A stretch of DNA of 64,000 bases from Escherichia coli (GTDB lineage Bacteria > Pseudomonadota > Gammaproteobacteria > Enterobacterales > Enterobacteriaceae). Both the position numbers and the translations under genes were made by a program. The stretch lies in the NCBI RefSeq assembly GCF_003790525.1, contig NZ_CP033635.1; one strand, given 5' to 3'. The notes below the pieces were generated by a model. That model had not been told where the DNA came from. It was given only the letters and a program-made list of their open reading frames with translations, and searched no databases. Positions 39,542 through 55,152 of the stretch are shown in pieces (positions within the stretch are counted from its first letter, which is position 1; every line of letters begins with the position of its first letter).

Positions 39542-39555
39542 TGACTCCTTTACTG

Positions 39556-40956
39556 TTAATCCATCTCTTCCGCTGAGGTAATACCAGGCAGAACGTTTTC
39601 CTGTCGGTAGCCACCAGGGAGGATAATATTTAATAAAATCGCAGTTAACCCGCCAGCACAAATAGGGTTTTCAACTAATACATAAATAGAGGCTGGCAAT
39701 ATTTTAAAAATTTCGGGATCGTAGGAGACGCCAAGTCCTAAACCTAAAGAAGTGGCGACAATAAGTGTTTCTCGGCGCTTTAAACCGTTGGTGATGATGA
39801 TGCGAATCCCAGCGATAGCAATCATGGAAAACATCAACGTCATTGCGCCTCCCAGAACTGCCGAGGGTATGGTTGTGAAGAAGCCGCCAATCATCGGAAA
39901 CAAGCCGAGGATAACCAGCATTACCGCGATGGTTCGCCCGACATAACGTGAAGCGACGCCAGTCATCTGAATAACCCCATTATTTTGCGCAAACGTGGTT
40001 AATGGTAATGAACCGACAGCGGAGGCGATAACAGAAACCAGACCATCTGCCAGCACGCCGCCTTTCAGTCGGGACTGATACTCTTCCCCCTGAATGGGGC
40101 GGCGGGAAACCATTGCCGTGGCGGTGATATCGCCGACTGCTTCCAGCACGCTAAGCAGATAAATCGTGCCAACCACCAGGAACTGATGGAAGCTAAAACT
40201 AAAGCCGTATTTGAACGGATGCGGGATGGTGATTAACGGCAAATTGCGCATACTGCTGAAATCCACCATGCCCAGGCATAACGATGCGATATAGCCGACA
40301 CATAGCCCAATGGCGATCCCTCCCATGCGTAGCAACGGACTGCGACAGCAGTTAAAGCCGATCACCACAATTAAAACCAATAAACCAACGCCGAGATGTT
40401 CGTAATTGCCGAACGTACCGCTGCTTTTGGCTGCAAATCCTCCACCAAAATCGATAATGCCGACTTTAATCAGGCTTAAGCCGATCATCAGTACCACAAT
40501 ACCGCTGACGGTAGGCGTAATAACCCGACGTAAATAGGGCAGGATAAATGAAGATCCGACAACCAGAAATGCGCCAACGAAGGAGACGCCGAGGAGCGAC
40601 GACATGATTAACTCTTCGTGAAAACCGTCGCTTTTCATGCTGCTGCCCAGCGCAATCATGACCGTAACAAATGAAAAATTGACTGACTGAATTGAGAGAA
40701 GACCAGAACCGACGATGCCGTAGCGGTTTACTTGTAACCAGGTACCAATACCAGAGGCGATCATCGCCATAGAAACCAGATAGGCGGTTGTTTCAGCGGA
40801 AAGCTGTAAGGCCGCACCCACGATTAACGCGGGGGTTACCATCGGAACGAAAATTGCCAACAGATGGGTAATGGCACCAACGAGAGCCTGATGAAAGGGA
40901 GGGCGATCCTCCAGTTCAAATATAAGGTCAGAACCTGCATGGTTTATATCAGACAT
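39556..40956 (-). CDS. xanQ: Xanthine permease (NCS2/NAT family)
   Basis: ORF track 485 aa; trimmed to MSDINHAGSDLIFELEDRPPFHQ (466 aa). Confidence 0.85.
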   Translation of the reverse strand: MSDINHAGSDLIFELEDRPPFHQALVGAITHLLAIFVPMVTPALIVGAALQLSAETTAYLVSMAMIASGIGTWLQVNRYGIVGSGLLSIQSVNFSFVTVMIALGSSMKSDGFHEELIMSSLLGVSFVGAFLVVGSSFILPYLRRVITPTVSGIVVLMIGLSLIKVGIIDFGGGFAAKSSGTFGNYEHLGVGLLVLIVVIGFNCCRSPLLRMGGIAIGLCVGYIASLCLGMVDFSSMRNLPLITIPHPFKYGFSFSFHQFLVVGTIYLLSVLEAVGDITATAMVSRRPIQGEEYQSRLKGGVLADGLVSVIASAVGSLPLTTFAQNNGVIQMTGVASRYVGRTIAVMLVILGLFPMIGGFFTTIPSAVLGGAMTLMFSMIAIAGIRIIITNGLKRRETLIVATSLGLGLGVSYDPEIFKILPASIYVLVENPICAGGLTAILLNIILPGGYRQENVLPGITSAEEMD

Positions 40957-41089: not shown

Positions 41090-41111
41090 GAAACAGGCCG
41101 CCGAAGCGGCC
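41090..41111 (-). terminator. Terminator hairpin after xdhD
   Basis: ggccgccgaagcggcc palindrome 10 nt 3' of the xdhD stop, flanked by T-rich sequence on both strands. Confidence 0.4.
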
Positions 41112-41120: not shown

Positions 41121-43991
41121 TTATATTTTTTCCAGCGCGGTGAGTATTTTCTCCGGTGTGAAATGCCATTCGCGTAACCAGATGCCGCATGCATCGTGAA
41201 TTGCGATAGCAATCGCCGGAGCTGCGCCATTTACACCGATTTCCGAGATCGATTTCGCCCCGAACGGGCCGACTTTATCGTCGCTCGGCACCAGCACAGC
41301 GCGGAAATCACGCGGAATGTCACCAATTTTCGGTGCGCCGTAACTGCGTAAATCACGCGTTAACGGGTGACCTTCGGCGTCATAAATGATCTCTTCGCTC
41401 ATACTGTGGCCGATAGCTCGCAGAGTGGCACCGTAGATTTGTCCCAACGCTAACTCTGGATTGACCGGTGTACCGCAATCCAGCAAGGCGTAGAATTTAT
41501 CCAGGCGGATTTCACCCGTACGCGTGTTGACGGCAACTTCAGCAAAGTTTGCGCCATACGGGAAGGCGAAATCAGGCGTGATATAACTGCCAGTTCCCAC
41601 CAGTGAACCAAAGCCGGTGCCGGTTTCGCCTTTATGGGCTATCTCTCCGAAACTAACTTCGCCTTTCTTGCCGCGAACGACGCCCGGCGTTGCTAGTTGA
41701 ACATCTGCCACTGGCTCACCCAACATTTGCGCGCCGTGGAACAGGATTTTCTCCCGCAGATTTTCCGCTGCCAAACGCGCAGCGTTACCCGAGAAGCAAG
41801 TACCGGACGAGGCATATGCGCCTTTATCAAACAGTGCATGATCGGTATCACCAGAGATAACATGCACGTCCTGCGGTGGGCAGTGCAGCACTTCTGCTGC
41901 CAGTTTCGTCACCACAGTATCCAAACCAGTACCAATATCCGCACCGCCAGAATGAACGATAAAGGTACCGTCTGATTCCAGTTTGATCATGCAGTTAGCC
42001 TGATCGATATCCGGGATACCCGATTTCTGCATGATAATGGCGACGCCACGACCGATGTGCCAGTCACCGTTTTGTGGTTTTGGTGAAGACCATTGGATCA
42101 TCTCGCGACCCTGACGCAGGATCTCTTCCAGTGCGCAGCTGGCGGCGGAAGGAACGGAGGTCGGCGCTTTACCTTCACCGATTGCACCGAGAATTTTCAG
42201 CTCTTGCCCTTCGTGTACCCGGTTACGTTCGATAATTTCCAGTTGGTCGATCTGTAACTGTTCAGCCAGTTCCGCTAATGCCATGGTGATAGCGAAGTTA
42301 CCTTTCGGTGCGCCATAACCCTGATAAGCACCATTTGGGCAAATGTTGCTGTAGTAGGTGGTGACCTGGAAATCGACGTTATCGCACGGATATAACGGCA
42401 GCGACAGCGCCGGTCCGTTACACGGTACGGTGAGTGAGTGGTTGCCGTAAGGGCCAGTGTTGGCGCGGAAATCCATCTTCACTGCCGTCAGGCGACCATC
42501 TTTTTTCGCTCCCAGTTTGACGGTGACTTTCGCGACGTGACGAGAGGTGTTAGCAATAAACTCTTCTTCACGGGTGTAGCGGAACAGTACCGGACGCCCG
42601 GTCACGCAGGTTGCCCAGGCGCACACTTCTTCCAGCAGGATGTCCTGTTTGGAACCAAAACCGCCGCCAACTCGCTCTTTAATGACATGAACTTTATGTT
42701 GTTTCATGCCCACGAGGCGCGCGACCTGGCGGCGTAAGTGCCATGGTACCTGGGTGGAGGCGTGGATAACCAGACGATCGCCGTCCATACGGGTAAAGCA
42801 GATATGTGTTTCAGTCGGGCACTGCTGCGCCTGCGTTGAGTTATAGGTTCGCTCAATGATCACATCGGCATCGGCAAAGCCTTTGTCCATATCGCCAATA
42901 TGACCATGGATACTGGCAGCGATATTTTTGCGTGGGCGAGAACCGATCGGGAAGTTGATGATCATATGCTCGCCGCGCTGGGCTGCATGGCTGTTATCAT
43001 CTTCCAGAGTATCTGGCGCACCAGCAACATACACCACCGGTTCATCGTGCACCACAGGCGCATCTTCCGCCATTGCCTCGTCAATCGACATTACTGGCTT
43101 AAGCACCTCATATTCAACGTCGATGAGCTTCAATGCTTCGAGCGCAATGTCTTCACTTTCAGCGACGACCGCAGCAACACGATCGCCGACGTGACGCATT
43201 TTCTTGCCGAACATACGGCGGTCAAGCGGTGACGGTTCCGGTGCGCTCTGACCACCCGGGGTATAGTAGATATCTGGGCAATTCAGGTGAGTAATAACGT
43301 GAACGACGCCCGGTAAGGCTTCAGCTTTGCTGACATCCAGATGAGTAATCAGTGCGTGAGCGTGTGGGCTACGTAACATTTTAATGACGCAGGCGTCAGC
43401 CGTTACGCGGTCTTCAACATAGCAGGGTTTCGCCTGCACCATTTTCGCGGCATCAGTTTTAGGATAATGCTTGCCAATGACTTCAAGGTCGTCACGGAAA
43501 GTCGGAGCGATATCAATGGTGGCCTGCGGATTATTTTTACGTGCAACCGCCAGTTCAATGACCTGATAGTATTGCTGCCAGCCAGCATCGCGGCTAAACA
43601 GACCTGAGAGCGCGTCGTCGATCTCTTCGCGGGTAGGTGCGGCGATGCGATCGAGAAGATCGGTGATAATCAGAGCCGCAGCTGGATCGTTATAACCAGA
43701 CTGCACCACGCCAACATCAACCATGGCCTGTTGAACCAGACTTAACTCGTTCCATTTGCCCAGAGATTCTGCGGTACGAATATCTGCCTTCTCTAACTGT
43801 GCGGCAATAAGCAAGGACGCGTTAACGATATTACCGTTAAAGATAATTGCGTCAGAACCGGCAAACCCAAAACCATCATCACTGTTGCGTACAGAGTGCA
43901 TTCCCATGTTAAACAACAGCTTTTGCACGTTTTCGCCTGGATTAACGGTTAGCTCCTGAGGCGCGCCATTTAAAGTAAAGTGGATGATCAT
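41121..43991 (-). CDS. xdhD: Molybdopterin-dependent hydroxylase XdhD (fused 2Fe-2S and Mo-cofactor-binding subunits, xanthine dehydrogenase family)
   Basis: 956-aa ORF MIIHFTLNGAPQELTVNPGENVQKLLF. Confidence 0.88.
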   Translation of the reverse strand: MIIHFTLNGAPQELTVNPGENVQKLLFNMGMHSVRNSDDGFGFAGSDAIIFNGNIVNASLLIAAQLEKADIRTAESLGKWNELSLVQQAMVDVGVVQSGYNDPAAALIITDLLDRIAAPTREEIDDALSGLFSRDAGWQQYYQVIELAVARKNNPQATIDIAPTFRDDLEVIGKHYPKTDAAKMVQAKPCYVEDRVTADACVIKMLRSPHAHALITHLDVSKAEALPGVVHVITHLNCPDIYYTPGGQSAPEPSPLDRRMFGKKMRHVGDRVAAVVAESEDIALEALKLIDVEYEVLKPVMSIDEAMAEDAPVVHDEPVVYVAGAPDTLEDDNSHAAQRGEHMIINFPIGSRPRKNIAASIHGHIGDMDKGFADADVIIERTYNSTQAQQCPTETHICFTRMDGDRLVIHASTQVPWHLRRQVARLVGMKQHKVHVIKERVGGGFGSKQDILLEEVCAWATCVTGRPVLFRYTREEEFIANTSRHVAKVTVKLGAKKDGRLTAVKMDFRANTGPYGNHSLTVPCNGPALSLPLYPCDNVDFQVTTYYSNICPNGAYQGYGAPKGNFAITMALAELAEQLQIDQLEIIERNRVHEGQELKILGAIGEGKAPTSVPSAASCALEEILRQGREMIQWSSPKPQNGDWHIGRGVAIIMQKSGIPDIDQANCMIKLESDGTFIVHSGGADIGTGLDTVVTKLAAEVLHCPPQDVHVISGDTDHALFDKGAYASSGTCFSGNAARLAAENLREKILFHGAQMLGEPVADVQLATPGVVRGKKGEVSFGEIAHKGETGTGFGSLVGTGSYITPDFAFPYGANFAEVAVNTRTGEIRLDKFYALLDCGTPVNPELALGQIYGATLRAIGHSMSEEIIYDAEGHPLTRDLRSYGAPKIGDIPRDFRAVLVPSDDKVGPFGAKSISEIGVNGAAPAIAIAIHDACGIWLREWHFTPEKILTALEKI

Positions 43992-44767
43992 ACGGCTTCC
44001 TCCCCAGCCTGTTGGCAGTCGGCATACAGGTCGGCTACCAGAACTCCCGTGATATAGCGTTTATAGGCCACGCTGCCCCGCAAATCTTCCTGCGGGAAAA
44101 TGGCGTTGGCGACAGCCTGTTCAAGGGCATTGCCTTCCAGATTTTGTTTTTCGACATCGTGCAGACGCAGTGCTTTACTGGCGACGCCATCCAGCGCAAT
44201 TCGCATACCGTCGTGGTCTGTCATTGCAACGGCTGCCGTCACGACGGTTAAACCTGCCTGAGAACGGCTAATTTTGCGGGTCGCACAGGTGCGATACGGA
44301 TCTTTAATGATAATTTCGGTTAACAGGCGATCGCATGGGCAGGCCAGGTAGTCCTCGATTGACAGCGTTTCGCCGTTGCCAAAAACCAGTTCAGCATCCA
44401 GTGCCAGCAGGACGGGAAGCAGCACCGACTCTTCCTGCCGGGCGGCGATTTCACCACCAATGGTCGACTGATTACGAACATGGCGTGAGTAAACAAAACC
44501 GAGAGCTTCACGCAGTGCTGCAGGAATAAATCGTGCATCACGCAGTGACTGCAAGCGAGACATTGCGCCAATTCGTAGTGCACCGTTATCCCAGTCAATC
44601 CAGTCCAGCTCCAGATCCTGCAAGGAAATGGCAATCTTTTTATCGGTACGGGTTGGTGTAGCGTTGAGTTTGCTGCCCCCGGCGAACCAGACGGCTTCAT
44701 CCTGGTAGCGGCGCTTCAGTTCCAGCGCTTGTTCGACAGAGTCGGGTCTGAAAAATTGTTCAATCAT
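43988..44767 (-). CDS. ygfM: FAD-binding subunit of molybdenum hydroxylase (CO dehydrogenase flavoprotein-like)
   Basis: 259-aa ORF; 4-nt stop/start overlap with xdhD. Confidence 0.85.
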   Translation of the reverse strand: MIEQFFRPDSVEQALELKRRYQDEAVWFAGGSKLNATPTRTDKKIAISLQDLELDWIDWDNGALRIGAMSRLQSLRDARFIPAALREALGFVYSRHVRNQSTIGGEIAARQEESVLLPVLLALDAELVFGNGETLSIEDYLACPCDRLLTEIIIKDPYRTCATRKISRSQAGLTVVTAAVAMTDHDGMRIALDGVASKALRLHDVEKQNLEGNALEQAVANAIFPQEDLRGSVAYKRYITGVLVADLYADCQQAGEEAV

Positions 44768-44817
44768 CGTCTTTCCTTAATTTCCCCTCTTCTCTGAAAG
44801 AAGAGGGGAGCTGTTAT

Positions 44818-46146
44818 TTATGCCAGCGCATCCATCCGACGCCACATACTGGCAGCGGCTTTTCTGGCTTGCGCATAAATGGAATCGCAATCGAAGTTAA
44901 ACTGACGGTCTTCATAGACCATCACACCATTGACCATCACGCTGTGAACGCTGCCTGAGCCCATACCGAAAGCGATATGCCCGGCGATATTGTCTGCCAG
45001 CAGCGGCGTTGGCGAGTTGTAATCACAAATGGTTAAATCGGCTTTGTAACCGGCTTCCAGAAGGCCAAATTTCGCGCCAAAGTTGCGGCTCATCAGTTCG
45101 TTGCCGTTAGCCAGTGCTTTGGCAAAACTGTCAGGCCACAGCGGGCCACCCGCATCGCGATGTTTAAAGAAGGCAAATTTCATCTCTTCAAACATGTCCG
45201 AACCAATGCCGTCCGTTCCCAACGCCAGATTGCGGATGTCGCTAAGGTGATGGTTGTAGCCGACATGGTTGTTCATGTTTGAACGGGCGTTATGCACCAG
45301 GAACGCATCGCGCTGATTGAGTAGGGCGATGTCATCTTTCGACAAGTACAGCCCATGAGCGACCAGCGTTTTGCTGTCGATGAGATCGAATTGCGTCAGT
45401 CGTGCCAGTAGGTCTTTGCCGTACCAGTGGTGACTGTAGGAAACGTCGTAAAGGTCTTCCGCAGCGTGAATATGCAAACCACGACCTGTGGTTTTCACGG
45501 CTTCACGCAGCATCTCCAGACCGGCATCCGGCACGGTAAACGGCGCGTGAGCGCCGATATGTGCTTCCACCAGATACGGCTCGGTTGCTGCTTTCTTCGC
45601 CTCATCAATCTGACGGGCGAAGCGGATGTTTTCTTCTACACCTTCCTGCAACTCTTTGATGCCGTTGTTACGGTCAGTAGTTTCAAAACAGGTCATCGCG
45701 CGCAGGCCAACTTTTAAAAATGCGTTGCGCAATGTGGAGAGCGACCCGTCGATATACGCCGGAGAGGCATGGTGATCGATAACCGATGTACATCCGCTCT
45801 TAATCGCTTCCAGGGAACAAATCAGTCCGCTGTAATAGAGCGACTCTTCATCAAGGGCGCGATCGAGCCGCCACCAGAGATTTTTCAGCGTTGAGATGAA
45901 ATCCGGGCAGGGGGCGATATTTGCCATAATTCCGCGGGAAAGCCCCGAGTAAAAATGGTTGTGCGAGCAGACAATCCCAGGCATCACAATCCGGCCATGC
46001 ATCTCTTTGTAGCTGGCATCGGGGTAGCGTTGCGTCAGGGCATCGCCGATAGCGACAATCACATCATTTTCGATGGCGATATCAACGCCTTCCTGCACTT
46101 TCGCCGGGTGTAACTGCACTGCGGTGACATTCTTCAGAATCAACAT
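44818..46146 (-). CDS. ssnA: Amidohydrolase-family protein SsnA (chlorohydrolase/aminohydrolase-like)
   Basis: ORF track 464 aa; trimmed to MLILKNVTAVQLHPAKVQEG (442 aa). Confidence 0.85.
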   Translation of the reverse strand: MLILKNVTAVQLHPAKVQEGVDIAIENDVIVAIGDALTQRYPDASYKEMHGRIVMPGIVCSHNHFYSGLSRGIMANIAPCPDFISTLKNLWWRLDRALDEESLYYSGLICSLEAIKSGCTSVIDHHASPAYIDGSLSTLRNAFLKVGLRAMTCFETTDRNNGIKELQEGVEENIRFARQIDEAKKAATEPYLVEAHIGAHAPFTVPDAGLEMLREAVKTTGRGLHIHAAEDLYDVSYSHHWYGKDLLARLTQFDLIDSKTLVAHGLYLSKDDIALLNQRDAFLVHNARSNMNNHVGYNHHLSDIRNLALGTDGIGSDMFEEMKFAFFKHRDAGGPLWPDSFAKALANGNELMSRNFGAKFGLLEAGYKADLTICDYNSPTPLLADNIAGHIAFGMGSGSVHSVMVNGVMVYEDRQFNFDCDSIYAQARKAAASMWRRMDALA

Positions 46147-46148
46147 GA

Positions 46149-49100
46149 TTACACCTCCACGCGGCCCAGCAGATAATGATGATGCTGGTGGACATGGCTG
46201 ATGATACGGCACATATCGTTCAGCTCCGGTGGTACGTTGTTGAACTGACCTTCGCTGTCGATGTTTAACACCCAGCTTTGGTTATTCAGACGTACGCGTA
46301 CCCGGCAATCTTCCACAAGGAAGCCTGGGTTGCTGCTGTTATCAAAGTCTTGCGACAGGCTGAAGACGGTGATTTTGTCTTTGTACGGTTTACCGTTCCA
46401 CGGGCAGAATTGGGCGCAGTTGCCGCATTCGTTGCAGTAGGCATCGAGATGCAGCGTCTGGAAACGGTTCTGGAAGCCAGGAACCGCAATGGAGACGTTG
46501 GCGCGGTTCGGGCAGACATCCACACACTTGCTGCAAACGTAGTTACATTCAAGGCAGCGTGCGGCTTCCTGGGCGACAAACGCGTCACGATCGTCACTGT
46601 TCACCAGAGTGATAGAGATATCGCCTTTACGTTGATAGATTTCCGCCGGATTGACGTTGTTCCAGTATTTATCGTTCTGGTGGGAACGGATATTTTCCCG
46701 ACTCAGGATTGCATCGGTCGCCCGACGCGCGGTTCCGACAGCAGCGACAATGGAGGATGGTCCGCGCTGTACGTCGCCGATCATAAAGACGTCAGTCAGA
46801 CGCGTTTCGCCATTATGGTCGACGTCTGGCCAGCCGTTTTTGTCCAGCGGCACGCCCATTGCATTCAGGGCTTCAGTATCCTGCTGTTCACCAATGGCGG
46901 TGATCAGGCTGTCTACATGCAGCGTTACTGTTTCGTTGGTTTCAACCGGACGGCGACGACCTTTCTCATCAGGTTCGCCAAGCGACATAACGCGCAAGGT
47001 TAAGGTGCCATCAGCATCGAAACGTTCCGGATTATTCAGAAAACGGAACTCCACGCCGTCGTGCAACGCTTCTTCATACTCTTCGCGCCATGCTGGCATC
47101 TCTTGCAGTGAACGACGGTAAACGACCGTTGCTTTTTCTACGCCTGGAACGCGTAACGCCGCACGAGCGCAGTCCATTGCGGTGTTACCCGCCCCGACAA
47201 CGACCACATGTTTGCCCAGCTTGAGCGCGGTGCCCTTGTTGTATTCACGCAGGAAGGGGAGTGATTTCCAGACATTTTGGTTGTCGCCCGCCAGTTTCAC
47301 ACCGCTATTTTTATCGGTACCGGTGGCAATCAGAACATAGTGGAAGCCCTGATTTTTTAACTGTTCGACGGTCAGATCCGGTGAGCAGCCATACTCAAAT
47401 TTCACGCCGTGAGCGGCAACAAAATCGATATCGTGCTGAATTAACTCTGCAGGAATACGGAACTGAGGAATGATATTTTTCACCACGCCGCCCGCATTGG
47501 CTTCGCGTTCAAACAGCGTAACCGGATGGCCCGCTCTGGCAAGGAAGTAACCTGCTGCCAGACCCGCCGGACCTGCACCAATCACGGCAACCGGATGGCG
47601 TGAACCAGAACCGGCTGGTTTGTGCCAGCGTTGCTTATATTCATCCCAACCTTTTTCCAGCGCGACTTTTTTCAGTTCGCGGATATTCAGCGCACTGTCG
47701 TAATCCAGGCGAGTACAGTTGTATTGGCACTGGTGATCGCAAATATGACCGGTAATGGCGGGCAGGGCGTTTCGTTGATAGATGAGTTCCAGCGCGTCGG
47801 CATAGCGGTGTTCGCCAAGCAGACGGATGTATTCCGGAATATCTTGCTTGATAGCGCAGGCAGTAACACAGGGGGCAACGTAGCAATCGGTCAGCGGCAG
47901 GTCTTCAGCCACTTCAATACGCTCTTCTGGCTTCCAGTGTTTCTGGGTGTATTCCATGGTTAACGCATCTGCTGCCAGTCTGTTCAGTCGTTCGACGTCA
48001 ACATGGTCAAGTCCCCAGGCGTTGGAGCCTTCCAGCTCGCGCATGCAGGCACTTAAGCGCAGATAGCCGCCAGGTTTCAGCAGGTCGGTTGCCATAGTAA
48101 TAGGGCGAATACCAGTATCAAAAATATCGCGGATAGTCAGCTGACTGGCACCACCGGAATAAGAAATGGGCAGTTTGCCGTCAAAGGCGCGAGAGAGAAC
48201 TGCTGCAACGTTGATGGAGAGCGGGAACAGCGCACGGCCTGACATATACATCTCTTCACCAGGCAGTGCGCCTTTATTGTTGATGGTGCCGAGAGTGTTA
48301 GTCAGTTTTACGCCAAAGCCGAGTGATTTTTCTTTTGCCAGTGCCATCAGGCGTTCCAGCATTTCCAGCGCTTGCGTCAGCTTGAGGTCGTGATCAAATG
48401 ACTCTTCTTTTAAGCCTATGTAACCGAAACCGCAGACATCAAGGATCTCACGAACACGCGCGTACCCCAGTAAGGTCGGGTTGAGTTTCACAAAGGTATT
48501 GAGCCCTTTTTCTTCCAGCATGTAGCGGCAAATGGCTTCGATTTCATGCGGAGGACAGCCGTGCATGGTGGAGAGGGTAACACCTTGTACCATGCTGGTG
48601 GGGATGCGAGCGGGTAAGGCTTGCAAGCTTTCGCGTTTTTCCTGTAAGCCGTGGCGGGCTAAAAATGCCTCATCCTGGAGTAGCTTATTAAGTGCATCGC
48701 GGTATTGAGCGAATTTCGGATGGTCAGATGCGTCCATCATATTGTCGATGAACTGCTGCATCGGCGGTTGCTTAATACCTTCGAGGTTGTAACCGACGCT
48801 CATATTAAAGATGAACGATTTACCGGAATCAGAAGGCTGGAACATCGCTTCGAGAAGGTGCAGGGCAAACCAGGCTTTGAGGTATTCATCCCAGGCTTTA
48901 AGCAGGGTAAATTCGGTAGACCATTCGGTGTTAAAGCACTCGTCTTCGGCATCGATACAGGGCTTTTCCAGCTCCAGGCGGTCAAGAATTTGGACGGTTT
49001 TTAGTTCGATGAAGCGTCCGCCAGTCAGCCAGGAAGTGACAATATTTTGCGCGAGCTGCGTGTGCGGGCCAGCGGCAGGGCCGACGGGAGTGGCACAGGT

Positions 49101-49247
49101 TTCACCGAAGACGCTAACAGTTTTACCTTTTACAGGTGAGTAAAACTGTTGCTCGGGAATACCAAAGATTGAGCGTTGTTGTTGGTATTCATCAAATATG
49201 CGCGTCAAAAGTTCCTCAAACGGAATGGGACGCATAATATCCCCCAT
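46149..49247 (-). CDS. ygfK: Large Fe-S/FAD oxidoreductase YgfK (putative selenate reductase component)
   Basis: 1032-aa ORF MGDIMRPIPFEELLTRIFDEYQQ with SD ggagag; Cys clusters and GAGPAGL NAD/FAD fold. Confidence 0.88.
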   Translation of the reverse strand: MGDIMRPIPFEELLTRIFDEYQQQRSIFGIPEQQFYSPVKGKTVSVFGETCATPVGPAAGPHTQLAQNIVTSWLTGGRFIELKTVQILDRLELEKPCIDAEDECFNTEWSTEFTLLKAWDEYLKAWFALHLLEAMFQPSDSGKSFIFNMSVGYNLEGIKQPPMQQFIDNMMDASDHPKFAQYRDALNKLLQDEAFLARHGLQEKRESLQALPARIPTSMVQGVTLSTMHGCPPHEIEAICRYMLEEKGLNTFVKLNPTLLGYARVREILDVCGFGYIGLKEESFDHDLKLTQALEMLERLMALAKEKSLGFGVKLTNTLGTINNKGALPGEEMYMSGRALFPLSINVAAVLSRAFDGKLPISYSGGASQLTIRDIFDTGIRPITMATDLLKPGGYLRLSACMRELEGSNAWGLDHVDVERLNRLAADALTMEYTQKHWKPEERIEVAEDLPLTDCYVAPCVTACAIKQDIPEYIRLLGEHRYADALELIYQRNALPAITGHICDHQCQYNCTRLDYDSALNIRELKKVALEKGWDEYKQRWHKPAGSGSRHPVAVIGAGPAGLAAGYFLARAGHPVTLFEREANAGGVVKNIIPQFRIPAELIQHDIDFVAAHGVKFEYGCSPDLTVEQLKNQGFHYVLIATGTDKNSGVKLAGDNQNVWKSLPFLREYNKGTALKLGKHVVVVGAGNTAMDCARAALRVPGVEKATVVYRRSLQEMPAWREEYEEALHDGVEFRFLNNPERFDADGTLTLRVMSLGEPDEKGRRRPVETNETVTLHVDSLITAIGEQQDTEALNAMGVPLDKNGWPDVDHNGETRLTDVFMIGDVQRGPSSIVAAVGTARRATDAILSRENIRSHQNDKYWNNVNPAEIYQRKGDISITLVNSDDRDAFVAQEAARCLECNYVCSKCVDVCPNRANVSIAVPGFQNRFQTLHLDAYCNECGNCAQFCPWNGKPYKDKITVFSLSQDFDNSSNPGFLVEDCRVRVRLNNQSWVLNIDSEGQFNNVPPELNDMCRIISHVHQHHHYLLGRVEV

Positions 49248-49568
49248 AACCCTCTCCTTAGCTTATACAGATATCATTGAGTGACCGGTGTTGAGAAATC
49301 CGGTGGTTTAGGGGGATAGAGCAACAATCGCACCACTCTTGCCAGGTTTGGCGGGAAATATAAAAAAATGTGAGGCGGCTCGAAACTTAATGGCTTTTTG
49401 TGAATGAACTCACAGGTGCCAAATGAGAATTAAAATCACTCCTGAAAATTATTATTGCCAGCACATTTATCACTTTTTCTCTTTTCTCAAAATCAGTGAT
49501 TCCTTATCATTATGATAAAGAGTGCAGGAGGGATTAAATATTTGAACGCAATCGTTTAACTACGTTTT

Positions 49569-50147
49569 CTAAATTTCAGTATACCTTTTCTTCGCTGTAA
49601 TAAAGTCGTCAGGAGTATCAATATCTAAAATTATTTCTGCATTTTCTATTTCGACGGAATAATGTTCTCCCATAAGGAGTGCCTGACGCATATTGGTGAC
49701 ATTGGGTCGCTGGATTGCCTGCATCAGGCATGGTTTTGACACTAAAATCGGATGGCCGGGGATGCCATTATGGAGTGGCAGTATTGCGCCATCATTTCGT
49801 AACGACCAGATTTTTCTAAAAATATCGATGGTGAGGGTTGGCATATCTCCGTGGGTGAGAAAACAATGTTCTGTTTGCACCGCGGGTACTGCGGCCTTTA
49901 CTGATGTCAGTAAACCCTGCGCATAATCTGGGTTGTGGATAATAGTGATATTGCTCTGGTTCGCATAACGTTCGTGCAGTTCATTACCACGATAGCCGGT
50001 GACTAAAATAATTCGGCTACAAAACTGCAACGCATTTTTGATACTTGTATCAAGAATTGTTCCCTGTTGCCAGGGTAACATCATTTTCCATTGCCCCATT
50101 CTTGATGATAATCCTGCGGCGGTAATTATACAGTCGATGGCTGACAT
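49569..50147 (-). CDS. mocA: Molybdenum cofactor cytidylyltransferase (MobA-like NTP transferase)
   Basis: 192-aa ORF MSAIDCIITAAGLSSRMGQWKMMLPW. Confidence 0.85.
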   Translation of the reverse strand: MSAIDCIITAAGLSSRMGQWKMMLPWQQGTILDTSIKNALQFCSRIILVTGYRGNELHERYANQSNITIIHNPDYAQGLLTSVKAAVPAVQTEHCFLTHGDMPTLTIDIFRKIWSLRNDGAILPLHNGIPGHPILVSKPCLMQAIQRPNVTNMRQALLMGEHYSVEIENAEIILDIDTPDDFITAKKRYTEI

Positions 50148-50250
50148 AGTGATTCCATTATTTACAGGAGCTAATAACGCCTGATAATTGCGTTACTTCC
50201 TGATGGATTAAGTTGAGGGTAATTTATCCCAGAGAGGTCCATAAAGACGC

Positions 50251-51021
50251 GTGAAAAGTATAATTGACCCATCGGCATTATTCATTGATTTAGGCGCGCA
50301 GAAACGTCCCACTGTGATTTCTGTTGTTGGGGCTGGGGGGAAAACCAGCTTGCTTTTTTGGCTGGCAGAACTGCTCCAGGCTAGCGGCAGGCGTGTGTTA
50401 ATCACTACGACGACACATATGTTTATGCCAACGTCTCACTGGCCCGTGGTTTTCTGTCGTGATCCCGCCATGCTTCCTCATGCGTCTTTTATATCCCCCA
50501 TTTTATTTTGTTTTCACAGCTGGAAAGCGAACCAGGGAAAAGTGCAGGGATTTACGCCAGAAGCGATTGATGCACTGGTGCAACGACCAGAGTGTGACGT
50601 AATTCTCATTGAGGCAGATGGCTCGCGTGGAATGCCGTTAAAAGCGCCTGATGAGCACGAACCTTGCATACCTAAAAGCAGTTGCTGCGTGATTGCTGTG
50701 ATGGGAGGACATATTTTGGGTGCGAAAGTGAGCACAGAAAATGTCCATCGCTGGTCGCAGTTTGCTGATATTACTGGGTTAACACCTGATGCACCCTTGC
50801 AACTGAGCGATCTCGTTGCGCTGGTTCGCCACCCTCAGGGGGCGTTTAAAAACGTACCGCAAGGTTGTCGGCGAGTCTGGTTCATTAACCGTTTTTCTCA
50901 ATGTGAGAATGCGATTGCGCAAAGCGAGCTCCTTCAACCGCTGCAACAACACAACGTAGAGGCAATCTGGCTGGGCGATATACAAGAACATCCTGCAATC
51001 GCGCGCAGATTTGTGAATTAG
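50251..51021 (+). CDS. yqeC: Selenium-dependent molybdenum hydroxylase system accessory protein YqeC
   Basis: 256-aa ORF with GTG start and P-loop-like VVGAGGKTS. Confidence 0.8.
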   Translation: MKSIIDPSALFIDLGAQKRPTVISVVGAGGKTSLLFWLAELLQASGRRVLITTTTHMFMPTSHWPVVFCRDPAMLPHASFISPILFCFHSWKANQGKVQGFTPEAIDALVQRPECDVILIEADGSRGMPLKAPDEHEPCIPKSSCCVIAVMGGHILGAKVSTENVHRWSQFADITGLTPDAPLQLSDLVALVRHPQGAFKNVPQGCRRVWFINRFSQCENAIAQSELLQPLQQHNVEAIWLGDIQEHPAIARRFVN

Positions 51022-51068
51022 CGGCCCGGGTATTCCGGGTTACTGAAAGGATATCCATTGAGGTTGGT

Positions 51069-52694
51069 ATGAATATTTTCACAGAGGCTGCAAAACTCGA
51101 AGAACAAAATTGTCCGTTTGCGATGGCGCAAATTGTTGATAGCCGAGGCTCAACCCCCCGCCATTCTGCACAAATGTTAGTGCGCGCCGATGGCTCTATC
51201 GTCGGTACAATTGGTGGCGGAATGGTTGAGCGGAAGGTGATTGAAGAGTCGCTTCAGGCATTGCAGGAACGTAAGCCGCGATTATTCCATGGACGTATGG
51301 CTCGTAACGGTGCGGATGCTGTCGGGTCAGATTGTGGAGGTGCAATGTCAGTATTTATCAGCGTCCATGGTATGCGTCCACGTCTGGTGTTGATTGGCGC
51401 GGGGCATGTCAACCGGGCGATAGCCCAGAGTGCGGCGCTATTAGGATTTGATATCGCCGTTGCCGATATTTATCGCGAAAGCCTCAATCCTGAACTATTC
51501 CCACCATCAACCACGCTTCTCCATGCTGAGTCGTTTGGTGCGGCAGTGGAAGCACTGGATATTCGCCCTGATAATTTTGTCCTGATTGCCACGAATAATC
51601 AGGATCGTGAAGCCCTCGACAAACTCATTGAACAACCCATTGCATGGCTGGGGTTGCTGGCAAGTCGCCGCAAGGTTCAGCTTTTCCTGCGCCAATTGCG
51701 TGAGAAAGGCGTGGCTGAAGAACATATTGCCCGTTTACATGCGCCCGTTGGTTACAACATAGGTGCGGAAACGCCGCAGGAGATCGCCATCAGCGTGCTG
51801 GCAGAAATATTACAGGTGAAAAATAACGCGCCGGGTGGGCTGATGATGAAGCCTTCTCATCCTTCCGGACACCAGCTGGTGGTGATTCGCGGTGCGGGGG
51901 ATATCGCCAGTGGTGTAGCGCTACGTCTGTATCATGCGGGTTTTAAAGTGATCATGCTGGAAGTGGAAAAACCGACAGTGATTCGTTGTACCGTGGCATT
52001 TGCCCAGGCCGTGTTCGATGGCGAAATGACGGTCGAAGGCGTCACCGCCCGCCTGGCAACCAGCTCTGCGGAGGCGATGAAACTTACCGAACGCGGATTC
52101 ATCCCTGTGATAGTAGATCCCGCCTGTTCATTGCTTGATGAACTGAAACCGCTTTGCGTGGTGGACGCTATTCTGGCGAAACAGAATTTGGGAACGCGGG
52201 CAGATATGGCACCAGTAACAATCGCGCTTGGGCCGGGCTTTACTGCAGGGAAGGATTGTCATGCGGTAATTGAAACAAATCGCGGGCACTGGCTCGGTCA
52301 GGTGATTTACTCTGGTTGTGCGCAGGAGAATACCGGTGTTCCTGGCAATATTATGGGGCATACCACCCGACGGGTGATCCGTGCTCCTGCTGCAGGCATT
52401 ATGCGATCCAACGTGAAATTAGGCGATCTGGTGAAAGAGGGCGATGTGATTGCCTGGATTGGTGAGCATGAAATTAAAGCACCGTTGACGGGGATGGTGC
52501 GTGGCTTGTTGAACGACGGACTGGCAGTGGTCGGTGGTTTTAAAATTGGTGATATCGATCCTCGTGGTGAAACGGCTGATTTCACCAGCGTTTCTGATAA
52601 AGCCCGGGCGATTGGCGGCGGCGTACTTGAGGCGTTAATGATGTTGATGCATCAGGGCGTTAAAGCGACAAAAGAAGTGCTGGAAGTGGCTTAA
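51069..52694 (+). CDS. yqeB: XdhC/CoxI-family maturation protein YqeB (selenium-dependent molybdenum hydroxylase system)
   Basis: 541-aa ORF MNIFTEAAKLEEQNCPFAMAQIVDSRGSTPRH. Confidence 0.85.
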   Translation: MNIFTEAAKLEEQNCPFAMAQIVDSRGSTPRHSAQMLVRADGSIVGTIGGGMVERKVIEESLQALQERKPRLFHGRMARNGADAVGSDCGGAMSVFISVHGMRPRLVLIGAGHVNRAIAQSAALLGFDIAVADIYRESLNPELFPPSTTLLHAESFGAAVEALDIRPDNFVLIATNNQDREALDKLIEQPIAWLGLLASRRKVQLFLRQLREKGVAEEHIARLHAPVGYNIGAETPQEIAISVLAEILQVKNNAPGGLMMKPSHPSGHQLVVIRGAGDIASGVALRLYHAGFKVIMLEVEKPTVIRCTVAFAQAVFDGEMTVEGVTARLATSSAEAMKLTERGFIPVIVDPACSLLDELKPLCVVDAILAKQNLGTRADMAPVTIALGPGFTAGKDCHAVIETNRGHWLGQVIYSGCAQENTGVPGNIMGHTTRRVIRAPAAGIMRSNVKLGDLVKEGDVIAWIGEHEIKAPLTGMVRGLLNDGLAVVGGFKIGDIDPRGETADFTSVSDKARAIGGGVLEALMMLMHQGVKATKEVLEVA

Positions 52695-52699: not shown

Positions 52700-52733
52700 A
52701 ATGGCCGGATGGTATTACCCATCCGGCCTTTAA
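52700..52733. terminator. Bidirectional terminator hairpin between convergent yqeB and yqeA
   Basis: ggccggatgg-tatta-cccatccggcc hairpin flanked by A/T runs. Confidence 0.5.
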
Positions 52734-52734: not shown

Positions 52735-53667
52735 TTACTGACAAATCACCGTTCCGGTTTTGCCTTCAATCCCTTCTTTCGCTTTGCTCAATACGGTAAT
52801 CAGTGCTTCACGACCTGCGCGAGAGCGAGCAAACGAGGCGGCAGCTTCCACTTTAGGCAGCATAGAACCTTTCGCAAAATGACCTTCTTCGATAAAGCGT
52901 TCAGCATCACTTAACGACAGGCGATCGAGCCACTGTTCATTCTCTTTTCCGAAGTTAATGGCCACTTTTTCTACCGCAGTCAGAATGATCAGCATATCGG
53001 CATCGATCATTTCTGCTAAACGGGCGCTGGCCCAGTCTTTATCGATAACCGCGCTGGCACCACGCAGATGGTTACCTTCACGAATAACAGGGATACCACC
53101 ACCGCCAACGGTGATCACCACCTGTCCGGCATCTACCAGCGCTTTAACCGTTTCTTTTTCAATGATATCAACCGGTTTTGGCGAAGCAACGACACGACGA
53201 TAGCCGCGACCAGCATCTTCTTTCAGGGTGTAGCCCTGTTTTGTCAGTTGCTCTGCTTCTTGCTCGGTAAAGAATGAACCGATCGGCTTGGTCGGGTTGA
53301 GGAATGCCGGGTCGTTAGCATCGACTTCGACCTGGGTAACCAGCGTTGCTACAGGTTTATTAATGCCCCGAGAAAGCAGTTCTTCTCTTAAAGCGTTTTG
53401 TAGATCGTAACCAATATAACCCTGGCTTAATGCAACACAGACAGACATCGGCAGCATTGGCGAGTGCGCTTCAGTTTTTGCGGCAGCTTCAAAGGCCTGG
53501 TTAATCATGCCCACCTGCGGCCCGTTACCATGAGTGACGATAACTTCATGTCCCTGGGCAATTAAATCAACAATTGCCTGAGAAGTAATTTTTACCGCTT
53601 TCATTTGTCCGGCCAGGTCATCGCCCAGCGCATTCCCGCCCAGGGCGAGAACAATTTTCTTACTCAT
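52735..53667 (-). CDS. yqeA: Carbamate kinase-like protein
   Basis: 310-aa ORF MSKKIVLALGGNALGDDLAGQMKAV, amino-acid kinase fold. Confidence 0.88.
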   Translation of the reverse strand: MSKKIVLALGGNALGDDLAGQMKAVKITSQAIVDLIAQGHEVIVTHGNGPQVGMINQAFEAAAKTEAHSPMLPMSVCVALSQGYIGYDLQNALREELLSRGINKPVATLVTQVEVDANDPAFLNPTKPIGSFFTEQEAEQLTKQGYTLKEDAGRGYRRVVASPKPVDIIEKETVKALVDAGQVVITVGGGGIPVIREGNHLRGASAVIDKDWASARLAEMIDADMLIILTAVEKVAINFGKENEQWLDRLSLSDAERFIEEGHFAKGSMLPKVEAAASFARSRAGREALITVLSKAKEGIEGKTGTVICQ

Positions 53668-53714
53668 TTTTCCTCACTCATCATTCTTGATTGTGTATAG
53701 ATCCCTGGCAGTGG

Positions 53715-55100
53715 TTAGAGCACGGGAGGGACAAACGGTTTGCGTCGCAGGAAACGACCTCGCCCGGCTTTGCCTGTAAAGGTGCCGTCACAGAAAATCG
53801 TTTCACCACGGGATAAGGTTCTGACAATCGCGCCCTGACAGGTAAAACCCTCCCATGGCGAGTAGTCGGCGTTGTCGTGGAGATGGCGATGCTGAATTTG
53901 TTGGCTCTGACGTGGGTCGATAATCACCACGTCGCCATCGGAACCGGGCGCTAATAATCCTTTTTGCGGCCACAGGCCAAACAGCCTGGCGGGCATTGCG
54001 CTGGTTAATTCAACAAAGCGTTCCGGTGTTATACGTCCCGTCATTACGCCACTGGAAAACAGTAACTGCATGCGGTTTTCCACACCGGGTAAGCCATTTG
54101 GGCAGCGACTGAAATCGCCTTTAGAAATTTGCAGGCGTTGAGCCATCGAGAACGTGCAGTGATCGGTCGCTACCACGTCAATCGCACCATCGCTGATGCC
54201 ACACCACAGTTTGTCCTGCTCGCGTACGTTACGCAGCGGTGGGCTAAGAATGAACTTCATGCCATCTTCTGTATCGTAACTGCGTTCGTCCAACAGGAGA
54301 TATTGTGGGCAGGTTTCAACCCAGACTGGCTGGTGATTCGCACGGGCAAGACGCAGATAATCCAGACCTAAGCCGTTAGACAGGTGCACGATATAGAGCG
54401 GGGCGTTACCGGCAATTTGTGCCAGGTTAATCATGCGGGCGATGGCTTCCGCTTCGCATTCCAGAGGGCGACTCAAGGCGTGATAGCGCGGCGCGGTTAA
54501 CCCTGCGGCGATAAACTCCGCCCGCTTGCTGGCGATAGCCGCATCATTTTCCGGGTGCACGGTGGTCAGCGCGCCGGATTCATGCAGACGGCGTAATGCC
54601 TGCAACACTTCATCATCGTTGAGTTTGTATTGATAGGTTAAATAGAGTTTAAAACTGCTCAGCCCTTCCTCGACCATCATCGGGATTTCGTCGAGGATGG
54701 CGTGATTAATGTGCTGGATCACACCGTGAAAGCTGTAGTCGATGACCGCCTTATGGGCGGCATAACCACGATAAACCTCCAGTTGATGGCGTAACCGGCA
54801 GCCATTCGGGCCAAATCCCATATGGTCAATAATGGTTGTTGTACCGCCACACGCAGCTGCGCGGGTACCGGTAAAAAAATCATCACAACTGCGCGCGATG
54901 CCGACATCAATATTGAAATGCGTATGGACATCCACGCCGCCAGGGAAAACGTAACAGCCAGTGGCATCAATTTCTTCATACGGGAGCTGCGGCGAAATAT
55001 TGTTGCCCAACTGGCGAACAATCCCGCTTTCAATCAGCAAATCCTGTTTGGCTTGTCCATCTGCGTTAACGACAGTGCCGTTTTTGATCAATACGCGCAT
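53715..55100 (-). CDS. hyuA: D-phenylhydantoinase (cyclic amidohydrolase/dihydropyrimidinase family)
   Basis: ORF track 465 aa; trimmed to MRVLIKNGTVVNADGQAKQDLLIESG (461 aa) with SD ggag; metal-binding HTH motif. Confidence 0.85.
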   Translation of the reverse strand: MRVLIKNGTVVNADGQAKQDLLIESGIVRQLGNNISPQLPYEEIDATGCYVFPGGVDVHTHFNIDVGIARSCDDFFTGTRAAACGGTTTIIDHMGFGPNGCRLRHQLEVYRGYAAHKAVIDYSFHGVIQHINHAILDEIPMMVEEGLSSFKLYLTYQYKLNDDEVLQALRRLHESGALTTVHPENDAAIASKRAEFIAAGLTAPRYHALSRPLECEAEAIARMINLAQIAGNAPLYIVHLSNGLGLDYLRLARANHQPVWVETCPQYLLLDERSYDTEDGMKFILSPPLRNVREQDKLWCGISDGAIDVVATDHCTFSMAQRLQISKGDFSRCPNGLPGVENRMQLLFSSGVMTGRITPERFVELTSAMPARLFGLWPQKGLLAPGSDGDVVIIDPRQSQQIQHRHLHDNADYSPWEGFTCQGAIVRTLSRGETIFCDGTFTGKAGRGRFLRRKPFVPPVL

Positions 55101-55110
55101 AGCAAACTCC

Positions 55111-55135: not shown

Positions 55136-55152
55136 GAATAAGTGAAGAGTAA

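Follow-up and report, generated by a model that had tools for sequence, protein, structure and literature searches.

A probable central module of the reductive urate degradation cluster of Escherichia coli, with its cofactor-maturation genes

Gene content and extent of the module

The window analysed here, a stretch of 64,000 nucleotides of Escherichia coli DNA, holds seven genes between positions 41121 and 52694, and their open reading frame limits agree, exact to the base, with those given when the module was first noticed. The following coordinates are those of the ORF list and the RefSeq annotation:

41121-43991, (-): xdhD, 956 aa
43988-44767, (-): ygfM, 259 aa
44818-46212, (-): ssnA, 442 aa, annotated start at 46146
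46149-49247, (-): ygfK, 1032 aa
49569-50147, (-): mocA, 192 aa
50251-51021, (+): yqeC, 256 aa
51069-52694, (+): yqeB, 541 aa

These ORFs are long conserved genes, and a chance pattern is excluded. The seven identities of the original prediction are confirmed by the coordinates, the RefSeq annotation and the curated NCBIfam profiles, whose cut-offs served as the threshold for family assignment and are passed by all seven proteins. Scores and cut-offs are 2118/1102 for XdhD (TIGR03313), 490/242 for YgfM (TIGR03312), 739/456 for SsnA (TIGR03314), 1781/835 for YgfK (TIGR03315) and 216/186 for MocA (TIGR03310), while the HMM check that had been proposed for the remaining two families gives 238/73 for YqeC (TIGR03172) and 416/220 for YqeB (TIGR03309). 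The originally listed gene order follows the K-12 orientation and is reversed in the window. By megablast, E. coli GN03551 is 100% identical to 41121-52694, and at least 80% of this stretch is carried by 5150 of 5426 complete E. coli genomes.

The module limits cut a single functional cluster. The seven genes represent only the middle part of a cluster for purines and urate that spans roughly 31 kb, extends from uacT (32492) to past xdhA (beyond 64000) and includes, according to the RefSeq annotation:

32492..40956: uacT, ygfT, ygfS, ghxQ, guaD and xanQ, transport and feeder genes
52735..58863, (-): yqeA/arcC (carbamate kinase), hyuA, ygeY, ygeX/dpaL and ygeW, the downstream half of the pathway
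59342..61120, (+): ygeV, sigma-54 enhancer-binding activator of the cluster
61160..64000, (-): xdhC, xdhB and xdhA, canonical xanthine dehydrogenase (xdhA cut by the window end)

The activities of the downstream-half enzymes have been described (PMC12507026; bioRxiv 10.1101/2025.04.24.650524), and a part of ygeV in urate use is cited in the literature.

Promoters and terminators

The regulatory features of the region are the following:

49320..49336, (-): sigma-54 promoter of the ygfK-ssnA-ygfM-xdhD operon, -24/-12 element GTGGTGCGATTGTTGCT
49399..49414: CRP consensus TGTGAATGAACTCACA, 0 mismatches, 63 bp upstream of the -24/-12 element
50161..50188, (+): sigma-70-like promoter candidate for yqeC, TTTACA-16-GATAAT, 10/12 consensus matches
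50652..50668, (+): intragenic sigma-54 promoter in yqeC, driving yqeB, TGAGCACGAACCTTGCA
58957..58973, (-): sigma-54 promoter of ygeW, site OS30 of PMC4591121
59016-59031: CRP-like site near the ygeW promoter, one mismatch
34313-34329: sigma-54 site for ygfT
52703..52728: bidirectional terminator hairpin between the convergent yqeB and yqeA/arcC, 10 pairs, 8 of them G-C
41096..41111, (-): G+C-rich hairpin directly 3' of the xdhD stop codon, with a weak T tract

The promoters of the operon and of yqeB match exactly the ChIP-seq sites OS31 and IS34, respectively, and mutation of IS34 renders the YqeB protein undetectable (PMC4591121). The CRP site at 49399..49414 is the sole perfect one between 32 and 64 kb, and its presumed function fits the reported repression of the urate pathway by glucose (PMC12507026). 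The sigma-70-like candidate for yqeC is a consensus match only, and the regional count of such candidates is no higher than in shuffled sequences. The hairpin following xdhD is a possible operon end ahead of xanQ.

Enzymes of the urate pathway and the iron-sulfur domain of XdhD

With a probability of roughly 0.85, these genes form the central module of the E. coli cluster that degrades urate reductively, via 2,8-dioxopurine, and include those that mature its cofactor. The pathway is the published one and, for K-12, the genes are the same, with the dehydroxylation of urate at C6, the reactions of YgfK and SsnA and control by sigma-54 in common. The system is thus already known: its enzymes were characterised in 2023-2025.

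XdhD, the molybdenum subunit of the urate reductase (2,8-dioxopurine dehydrogenase), catalyses the NADH-driven loss of the C6 oxygen of urate to form 2,8-dioxopurine (Li 2025, PMC12507026; Liu 2025, bioRxiv 10.1101/2025.04.24.650524), and its substrate, which the original prediction considered not fully resolved, is therefore established in the literature. A protein of ~30 kDa co-purified with XdhD was taken to be YgfM (PMC12507026), the FAD-binding subunit, which retains the FAD motifs FAGGSKLN and STIGGEIA and whose gene overlaps xdhD by 4 nt. While E. coli XdhD uses this separate FAD subunit and NADH in vitro, assays of the clostridial enzyme relied on artificial donors (PMC12507026; PMC12990295). 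YgfK then reductively dearomatises 2,8-dioxopurine by means of NAD(P)H, flavins and Fe-S clusters, and the amidohydrolase SsnA opens the ring of dihydro-2,8-dioxopurine to yield ureidomethyl-hydantoin (PMC12507026; further commentary in PMC12990295).

YgfK holds Fer4_20 (453-532) and Pyr_redox_2 (552-839) Pfam domains and two C-terminal 4Fe-4S Cys motifs (898-948), whereas a Pfam search gave no match for its ~450 N-terminal residues. Dihydropyrimidine dehydrogenase (PydA/DPD) likewise has Fer4_20, the NAD(P)H/FAD module and the C-terminal 4Fe-4S dicluster, and in both cases reduction of a heteroaromatic C=C bond precedes ring opening by an amidohydrolase. However, YgfK acts on a purine and differs in domain order, the presumed FMN domain being the N-terminal region that lacks a Pfam match.

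Two older readings of these genes are to be weighed against this enzymology. The RefSeq name of YgfK is still "putative selenate reductase subunit", and Haft & Self list the genes as such subunits while discussing the alternative; YgfK, YgfM and XdhD (YgfN) would then form a selenate reductase that supplies or detoxifies selenium. This is highly improbable and largely refuted by the activities of the purified proteins, which convert urate to 2,8-dioxopurine and on to ureidomethyl-hydantoin, and the deletion mutants are blocked in urate catabolism (PMC12507026). Moreover, the module is surrounded by genes for purine transporters, guaD and genes for downstream ureide enzymes, and homologues of selenate reductase subunits track selD poorly (Haft & Self). 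There is equally little reason to regard XdhD as a purine-salvage enzyme that oxidises hypoxanthine or xanthine, or to assign the operon to the breakdown of guanine derivatives that are damaged or modified (the guanidine hypothesis), even if names like "hypoxanthine oxidase" persist in databases and Danchin and co-workers have speculated on modified-base catabolism. Deletion genetics contradicts this proposal, since the xdhD deletion strain consumes xanthine and accumulates urate, while the xdhA deletion strain leaves xanthine; in addition, the XdhD product was identified against a 2,8-dioxopurine standard (PMC12507026). XdhD may still act on other purines as a side reaction.

XdhD has the xanthine-oxidase family fold of nicotinate dehydrogenase (Eubacterium barkeri), clostridial XDH and purine hydroxylase, and chains of PDB 3HRD match it at E values of 1e-44 and 4e-27. 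Its Pfam domains comprise a hammerhead (187-298), MoCoBD_1 (355-590) and MoCoBD_2 (639-893), preceded by a degenerate, cysteine-less, [2Fe-2S]-like N-terminal domain (residues 1-170). All eight cysteine ligands of the two [2Fe-2S] clusters are gone from proteobacterial XdhD, a new and unexpected observation, whereas they are kept in distant orthologues and all eight are present in XdhC of the canonical xanthine dehydrogenase of the cluster. Comparison with two hydroxylases from urate clusters, those of Cetobacterium and C. novyi, indicates that these keep both the eight ligands and the family Arg that is replaced by Gln557 in XdhD. The catalytic Glu917 is conserved, and the Glu606 loop is common to XdhD and these two hydroxylases but absent in XdhA-type enzymes, in support of their orthology with XdhD. 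As the [2Fe-2S] pair normally links FAD to molybdenum, the loss of all its ligands conflicts with the simple electron route from NADH through FAD and Fe-S to Mo that modelling on R. capsulatus XDH implies.

Selenium and the maturation of the molybdenum cofactor

The tie to selenium-dependent molybdenum hydroxylases drawn originally is correct and agrees with the phylogenetic profiling of Haft & Self (2008), which supports a selenium link of the genes. Like XdhD, the known enzymes of this class are tied to an MCD cofactor, selD, yqeB and yqeC. A selenium requirement is shown for the clostridial orthologue and would extend to E. coli XdhD by orthology. Unlike the known enzymes, XdhD works in the reductive direction and has a degenerate Fe-S domain. 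The tests suggested at the outset have largely been carried out already, in clostridia: the C. sporogenes orthologue is inactive without the selenophosphate synthetase SelD (bioRxiv 10.1101/2025.04.24.650524), and in C. difficile deletion of yqeB abolishes growth on urate, deletion of yqeC has no phenotype, and selD genetics likewise support the selenium link. The XdhD cofactor is probably selenium-bearing.

Alternatively, E. coli XdhD could be an ordinary sulfur-type (Mo=S) hydroxylase, with YqeB mainly an XdhC-type chaperone for XdhD and XdhABC and the "selenium" label of YqeB and YqeC functionally void in this organism. Along these lines, a review from the Leimkuhler group considers YqeB a possible shared XdhC-like chaperone (PMC2997495), Li et al. 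obtained active E. coli XdhD without ever mentioning selenium (PMC12507026), and in the words of Johnstone & Self (2024) E. coli "likely does not make SDMHs". Nonetheless, this alternative is unlikely given the strict need of the clostridial orthologue for SelD (bioRxiv 10.1101/2025.04.24.650524). The YqeB-specific domain of E. coli is also 55-60% identical to its Moorella or spirochaete counterparts, a level of identity that implies conservation of function. Trace selenium is present in LB medium, and E. coli has selD (b1764, listed by Haft & Self), both of which count against an ordinary Mo=S enzyme.

MocA is the CTP:molybdopterin cytidylyltransferase that makes the cytosine-dinucleotide form (MCD) of the molybdenum cofactor (PMC2997495). 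The N-terminal half of YqeB is an XdhC-type cofactor chaperone (XdhC_CoxI 12-74, XdhC_C 106-247), as in Rhodobacter capsulatus XdhC and E. coli PaoD, and is expected to bind the cofactor for exchange of its terminal ligand and subsequent insertion (PMC2997495). In contrast to XdhC and PaoD, YqeB has an extra 255-residue domain confined to selD-positive genomes, and selenophosphate, in place of a NifS-type cysteine desulfurase, is the presumed source of its chalcogen. This domain (271-526), on grounds that include a pLDDT of 92.9, combines a Rossmann-like fold with a biotinyl-like barrel sandwich that lacks the lysine, an assignment that is new here. It has neither a conserved Lys nor an invariant Cys, and the YqeC family does not conserve Cys139, so persulfide- or perselenide-type carrier chemistry is not supported.

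YqeC is a SIMIBI-class P-loop NTPase, also a new assignment, with Walker A GAGGKTS (27-33), TTTT (52-55), EADG (121-124) and KAP..HEP (131-138) motifs. The ten long matches checked among the best 150 YqeC representatives were all fusions, of the types YqeC-MocA (in both orders), YqeC-MocA-YqeB, YqeC-YqeB and ModE-YqeC. In Moorella thermoacetica, a YqeC-MocA fusion adjoins XdhC, YqeB and a TIGR03311 "selenium-dependent XDH", and in a spirochaete MAG XdhC, YqeC and YqeB are clustered with yqeC adjoining yqeB, an arrangement that recurs in a metagenome contig. These associations of YqeC, MocA, YqeB and XdhC in other genomes point to a new conclusion, namely that they act on the cofactor before its insertion. 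MobA and MobB are a cofactor guanylyltransferase and its P-loop GTPase adaptor, and MocA and YqeC likewise pair, and sometimes fuse, a cofactor nucleotidyltransferase with a small dispensable P-loop NTPase, an analogy drawn from the fusions only, as sequence and profile comparison found no similarity between YqeC and MobB.

In the mechanism proposed, the XdhC half of YqeB would hold the MCD made by MocA, and the YqeB-specific half would mediate the exchange of the terminal molybdenum ligand, sulfido or oxo, for selenophosphate-derived selenium ahead of cofactor insertion into XdhD. YqeC, often fused to MocA, would serve in this hand-over as a dispensable nucleotide-driven adaptor, following the logic of MobB with MobA, and its role may be marginal or conditional given the clostridial deletion result.

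The original interpretation is therefore partly supported and partly out of date. Among the points it listed as not fully resolved, the XdhD substrate is known and the selenium of the enzyme class has been seen crystallographically as a ligand of Mo (nicotinate dehydrogenase, PDB 3HRD). For E. coli, the genes of the module carry out the first steps of an oxygen-free breakdown of uric acid, along with the helpers that build their molybdenum cofactor.

The urate cluster and its regulation

The open reading frames at 41121-52694 coincide with the limits of the original prediction, bearing out the gene module that it had described. RefSeq names the genes xdhD, ygfM, ssnA, ygfK, mocA, yqeC, and yqeB, and all seven proteins score above the curated NCBIfam cut-offs, the family HMM searches confirming both YqeB and YqeC.

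Open reading frames of the stretch: window coordinates, strand, gene name, and NCBIfam model with score
41121-43991 (-): xdhD; TIGR03313, 2118 bits (cut-off 1102)
43988-44767 (-): ygfM; TIGR03312, 490 bits
44818-46212 (-): ssnA; TIGR03314, 738.6 bits (cut-off 455.5)
46149-49247 (-): ygfK; TIGR03315
49569-50147 (-): mocA; TIGR03310, 215.9 bits (cut-off 186.45)
50251-51021 (+): yqeC; TIGR03172 (PF19842), 238 bits (cut-off 73)
51069-52694 (+): yqeB; TIGR03309, 416 bits (cut-off 220)

The chromosome of E. coli GN03551 carries these 11.6 kb with 100% identity, and 5150 of 5426 complete E. coli genomes contain at least 80% of the stretch. The genes occupy the center of a single functional cluster extending from uacT (32492) to past the window end, with the gene order uacT, ygfT, ygfS, ghxQ, guaD, xanQ; xdhD, ygfM, ssnA, ygfK; mocA; yqeC, yqeB; yqeA, hyuA, ygeY, ygeX, ygeW; ygeV; xdhC, xdhB, xdhA. 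Elsewhere, the window carries ordinary core genes of E. coli, running from scpABC through gcvTHP and then into the purine cluster up to xdhA. There is a 4-nt overlap between ygfM and xdhD (43988-43991), and a cluster of 43 database sequences (P0242) consists of a 1215-aa YgfM-XdhD read-through, which probably derives from frameshifted assemblies. Complete urate-degradation clusters are also carried by plasmids—p1 of Cetobacterium somerae (L009) and pCN1 of Clostridium novyi (L010)—and include a sigma-54 regulator, ssnA, a 4Fe-4S reductase, a FAD/Fe-S/Mo hydroxylase, dpaL, ygeY, hydA, and XdhC; the C. novyi/C. botulinum plasmids with such clusters measure ~94-135 kb.

The locus is the same as the one characterized in K-12, so that the finding is already known and the cluster has been worked out in the literature. 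E. coli XdhD was purified with a ~30-kDa companion, taken as YgfM, and in the presence of NADH it converts urate into 2,8-dioxopurine ("yanthine") (Li et al. 2025, PMC12507026). Upon deletion of xdhD, urate builds up and yanthine is not made, while YgfK and SsnA with NAD(P)H convert 2,8-dioxopurine into ureidomethyl-hydantoin (PMC12507026). The statement that the substrate of XdhD is unresolved is thus outdated. YgfK converts 2,8-dioxopurine into a reduced purine and SsnA opens the ring of the latter, both steps being established for the E. coli proteins, as is the synthesis of the cytosine-dinucleotide form of the molybdenum cofactor (MCD) by MocA (reviewed in PMC2997495). The database labels "selenate reductase" and "hypoxanthine oxidase" persist and are contradicted by biochemistry and genetics. 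Several RefSeq names likewise predate the enzymology published in 2025: "putative selenate reductase subunit YgfK" (46149-49247, -), "D-phenylhydantoinase" for hyuA (53715-55100, -), and "Mo/Fe-S-binding subunit" for xdhD.

According to its Pfam matches, YgfK holds a Fer4_20 domain, an NAD(P)H/FAD module, and a 4Fe-4S dicluster, with Cys motifs at residues 898-912 and 938-948, in a domain order that is permuted relative to dihydropyrimidine dehydrogenase. Its residues 1-450 (47898-49247, -) have no Pfam match, though they are covered by TIGR03315, and a FMN site has been modelled in these N-terminal ~450 residues by Li et al. (PMC12507026).

Regarding regulation, sigma-54 sites have been mapped before ygfK, ygeW, xdhA, and ygfT, as well as inside yqeC, where the site is the yqeB promoter (Bonocora et al. 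2015, PMC4591121).

Regulatory elements: window coordinates, strand, and description
34313-34329 (+): sigma-54 -24/-12 element, one mismatch
49320-49336 (-): sigma-54 -24/-12 element, exact match to a mapped site
49399-49414: perfect CRP consensus, TGTGAATGAACTCACA
50652-50668 (+): sigma-54 -24/-12 element, exact match to a mapped site
52703-52728: strong bidirectional hairpin between the convergent yqeB and yqeA
58957-58973 (-): sigma-54 -24/-12 element, exact match to a mapped site
59016-59031: CRP site with one mismatch, upstream of the ygeW promoter

The perfect CRP site, which precedes the sigma-54 element of ygfK by 63 bp, is the sole zero-mismatch site in the 32-64 kb region, and fits the glucose repression reported in PMC12507026.

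The cysteine-less N-terminal domain of XdhD

XdhD belongs to the xanthine-oxidase-family hydroxylases, within the 2,8-dioxopurine dehydrogenase/urate reductase (DOPDH) clade. It holds the hammerhead and two molybdopterin-binding domains (PF01315, PF02738, and PF20256, with E-values from 2e-30 to 4e-72), and the catalytic Glu917 near its C-terminus—taken here to be the counterpart of bovine E1261—is invariant in the alignments. XdhD sits in the urate cluster, and the distant orthologues from Cetobacterium and C. novyi, obtained by tblastn against plasmids, also lie in urate clusters. XdhD shares a Glu606-bearing loop, which the XdhA types lack, with the urate-cluster enzymes of Cetobacterium, C. 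novyi, Paludibacterium, and Photobacterium; all the DOPDH-like enzymes hold both this loop, previously highlighted by Li et al. (PMC12507026), and the catalytic Glu917. Besides the cysteine loss described below, this proteobacterial clade is set apart by Gln557 (42321-42323, -), close to the substrate pocket: the motif reads GAYQGYG in XdhD from E. coli, Paludibacterium, and Photobacterium, and GA(F/Y/M)RG(F/Y)G, with Arg at this position, in the XdhA-type and the clostridial/fusobacterial enzymes. XdhD also bears an insertion of ~37 residues (~316-352; 42936-43046, -), DEPVVYVAGAPDTLEDDNSHAAQRGEHMIINFPIGSRPRK, that neither E. coli XdhA nor the Moorella enzyme has.

The eight cysteines that bind two [2Fe-2S] clusters in this family are missing from XdhD. 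Its N-terminal domain (residues 1-170; 43482-43991, -) shows only a Fer2_2 remnant in Pfam, and residues 1-189 are free of Cys. When XdhD is aligned with the Moorella enzyme and with XdhA and XdhC of E. coli, the eight canonical ligand positions are occupied by D39, A44, D47, S59, S98, N101, S133, and D135. Among 109 XdhD homologues of at least 74% identity, from Enterobacterales, Photobacterium, and Paludibacterium, 103 hold the same DADSSNSD combination and none has a Cys at these positions; this conservation rules out strain decay or an annotation error as the origin of the loss. The ygfK-ssnA-ygfM-xdhD operon with a Cys-less XdhD is also kept in a betaproteobacterium. All eight cysteines are kept in E. 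coli XdhC, in the fused orthologue from the C. somerae urate cluster (44.8% identity over the full length), and in the separate 149-aa Fe-S subunit from the urate cluster of C. novyi pCN1. Judged from these sequences, the Cys-less domain is a derived state. Since these ligands are replaced in XdhD, the RefSeq name "Mo/Fe-S-binding subunit" is misleading. YgfM keeps the AGG and TIGG FAD motifs. A compensating cluster site in this subunit is rejected, as three proteobacterial YgfM proteins share just two cysteines, too few for such a site. In the accessible papers on this pathway, neither a mention of 2Fe-2S clusters or cysteines in XdhD nor a discussion of a lost Fe-S wire was found.

In solved xanthine dehydrogenase structures, two clusters bridge a flavin-molybdenum gap that is far beyond the range of single-step tunnelling. 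The scheme in which electrons pass from NADH through FAD to molybdenum, implied by modelling on the R. capsulatus enzyme (PMC12507026), therefore lacks its wire. The reading proposed here, to which a probability of about one in four is given, is tentative: E. coli-type XdhD would have lost the Fe-S wire while keeping YgfM, and electrons would reach molybdenum by a ping-pong reaction or from an external partner, and not by the canonical path from FAD through two Fe-S clusters to Mo, which is impossible if the wire is lost. The ping-pong reaction may take place at the molybdenum center, with one purine being hydroxylated while urate is dehydroxylated, as might occur in a redox-neutral conversion of xanthine into 2,8-dioxopurine via urate. 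Alternatively, the external Fe-S partner may be YgfK or YgfS/YgfT/AegA, and this could account for the formate dependence that has been reported; a formate-dependent route involving YgfS/YgfT/AegA is cited in the urate literature. The reaction with NADH may also be slow and non-physiological. The published XdhD assay relied on LC-MS at the endpoint, with the enzyme at 10 uM, the time not stated and no kinetics (PMC12507026), and a commentary points out that kinetic parameters are still missing (PMC12990295).

YqeB, YqeC, and MocA as a putative maturation module

The use of YqeB, YqeC, and YgfJ as markers of selenium-dependent molybdenum hydroxylases had already been derived by Haft and Self, who noted the XdhC fusion, singled out this E. 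coli region, and listed selD, which lies outside the window, as b1764 (Haft & Self 2008, PMC2276186). The co-occurrence of these markers is observed here, with yqeC and yqeB ~6 kb from xdhD. In clostridia, the orthologous hydroxylase of C. sporogenes shows no activity if it is isolated from a selD mutant (Liu et al., bioRxiv 10.1101/2025.04.24.650524), and growth of C. difficile on urate needs selD and yqeB, and not yqeC (Johnstone & Self 2024, PMC11448449). A requirement for SelD and YqeB, with YqeC dispensable, is established in clostridia only; E. coli data on a selenium requirement of XdhD were not found in the accessible papers on this pathway. The original prediction stands in part: the substrate of XdhD is now settled, and its statement on the roles of YqeB and YqeC still holds.

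YqeB is a protein of 541 residues with an XdhC-type chaperone portion (residues 12-247) and a family-specific domain (271-526). The N-terminal half matches XdhC_CoxI and XdhC_C in Pfam (E 1e-19 and 1e-32), as well as the PDB entries 2we7 (E 3.5e-27) and 3on5 (E 7.8e-21). With 111 bits on TIGR02964 it stays below the cut-off of 161.6, which makes it a relative rather than an equivalog. The specific domain is highly conserved: the E. coli sequence shares 55-60% identity with its Moorella and spirochaete counterparts, and most homologues of the domain are stand-alone proteins of 260-300 residues. A profile search of the PDB with this domain gave nothing significant, and hence no solved relative by sequence. 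Carrier-protein chemistry is unsupported for this domain, since its alignment contains neither an invariant Cys nor a conserved Lys in a hairpin of the biotinyl/lipoyl type.

YqeC is a P-loop NTPase with a SIMIBI-class fold. In 105 diverse members, G27, G29, G30, K31, T55, D123, G124, K131, E137, and P138 are invariant, the Walker A motif being G27-x-G29-G30-K31. A sequence search of the PDB gave no match even at E 10, and a profile search reached FtsY and ArsA in their P-loop regions only. Cys139 (HEPCIP; 50665-50667, +) is invariant in gammaproteobacteria. It is rejected as a Se/S carrier and as a catalytic residue common to the whole family, as the majority residue in the 105-sequence family alignment is Val.

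Domain fusions connect these proteins to one another. Moorella thermoacetica holds a YqeC-MocA fusion (locus L003, 8525-9892) with both halves above the curated cut-offs, neighbored by a split XdhC, YqeB, and a TIGR03311 "selenium-dependent XDH". Ten long YqeC proteins were checked among the best 150 representatives of ~4800 YqeC clusters, and every one is a fusion. The types are YqeC-MocA in either order, YqeC-MocA-YqeB (777 aa), YqeC-YqeB (541 aa), and ModE-like-YqeC (399 aa), with P0418, P0466, P0490, P0376, and P0392 as the fusion proteins. XdhC, YqeC, and YqeB are also encoded close together in a spirochaete MAG, with yqeC adjoining yqeB, and a metagenome contig repeats this arrangement. 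The set of domains accompanies different hydroxylases, as expected of maturation factors; neighborhood look-ups revealed no hydroxylase within 10 kb of two further YqeB homologues.

These fusions suggest that the XdhC, MocA, YqeC, and YqeB domains form one maturation module acting on MCD before its entry into the apoenzyme. The XdhC half of YqeB would hold MCD and its specific half would mediate Mo=Se formation from selenophosphate, with YqeC as a putative NTP-driven adaptor linked to MocA. The MocA/YqeC pair resembles, only by analogy, MobA/MobB, where a nucleotidyltransferase is likewise paired with a dispensable P-loop NTPase; such a pairing would explain why deleting yqeC is silent. However, no similarity of YqeC to MobB was found by sequence or profile when this analogy was pursued.

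Implications for urate disposal and selenium use

Approximately one third of human urate is disposed of by gut bacteria (PMC12507026; bioRxiv 10.1101/2025.04.24.650524), and the route they take is this cluster, which therefore bears on gout and on engineered probiotics. Both probiotic engineering and kinetic models assume a NADH-driven XdhD-YgfM; if the true electron source differs, the flux-limiting step would be wrongly assigned. The loss of the Fe-S ligands in an enzyme of medical topicality may surprise specialists. In addition, the way in which a labile selenium atom comes to sit on a molybdenum cofactor is described as the least understood of the biological uses of this element (Johnstone & Self, PMC11448449). 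The domain fusions narrow the question to a four-protein module—the XdhC domain, MocA, YqeC, and the YqeB domain—acting before insertion, and the whole machinery is present in E. coli, a tractable host, which makes the question of selenium insertion testable.
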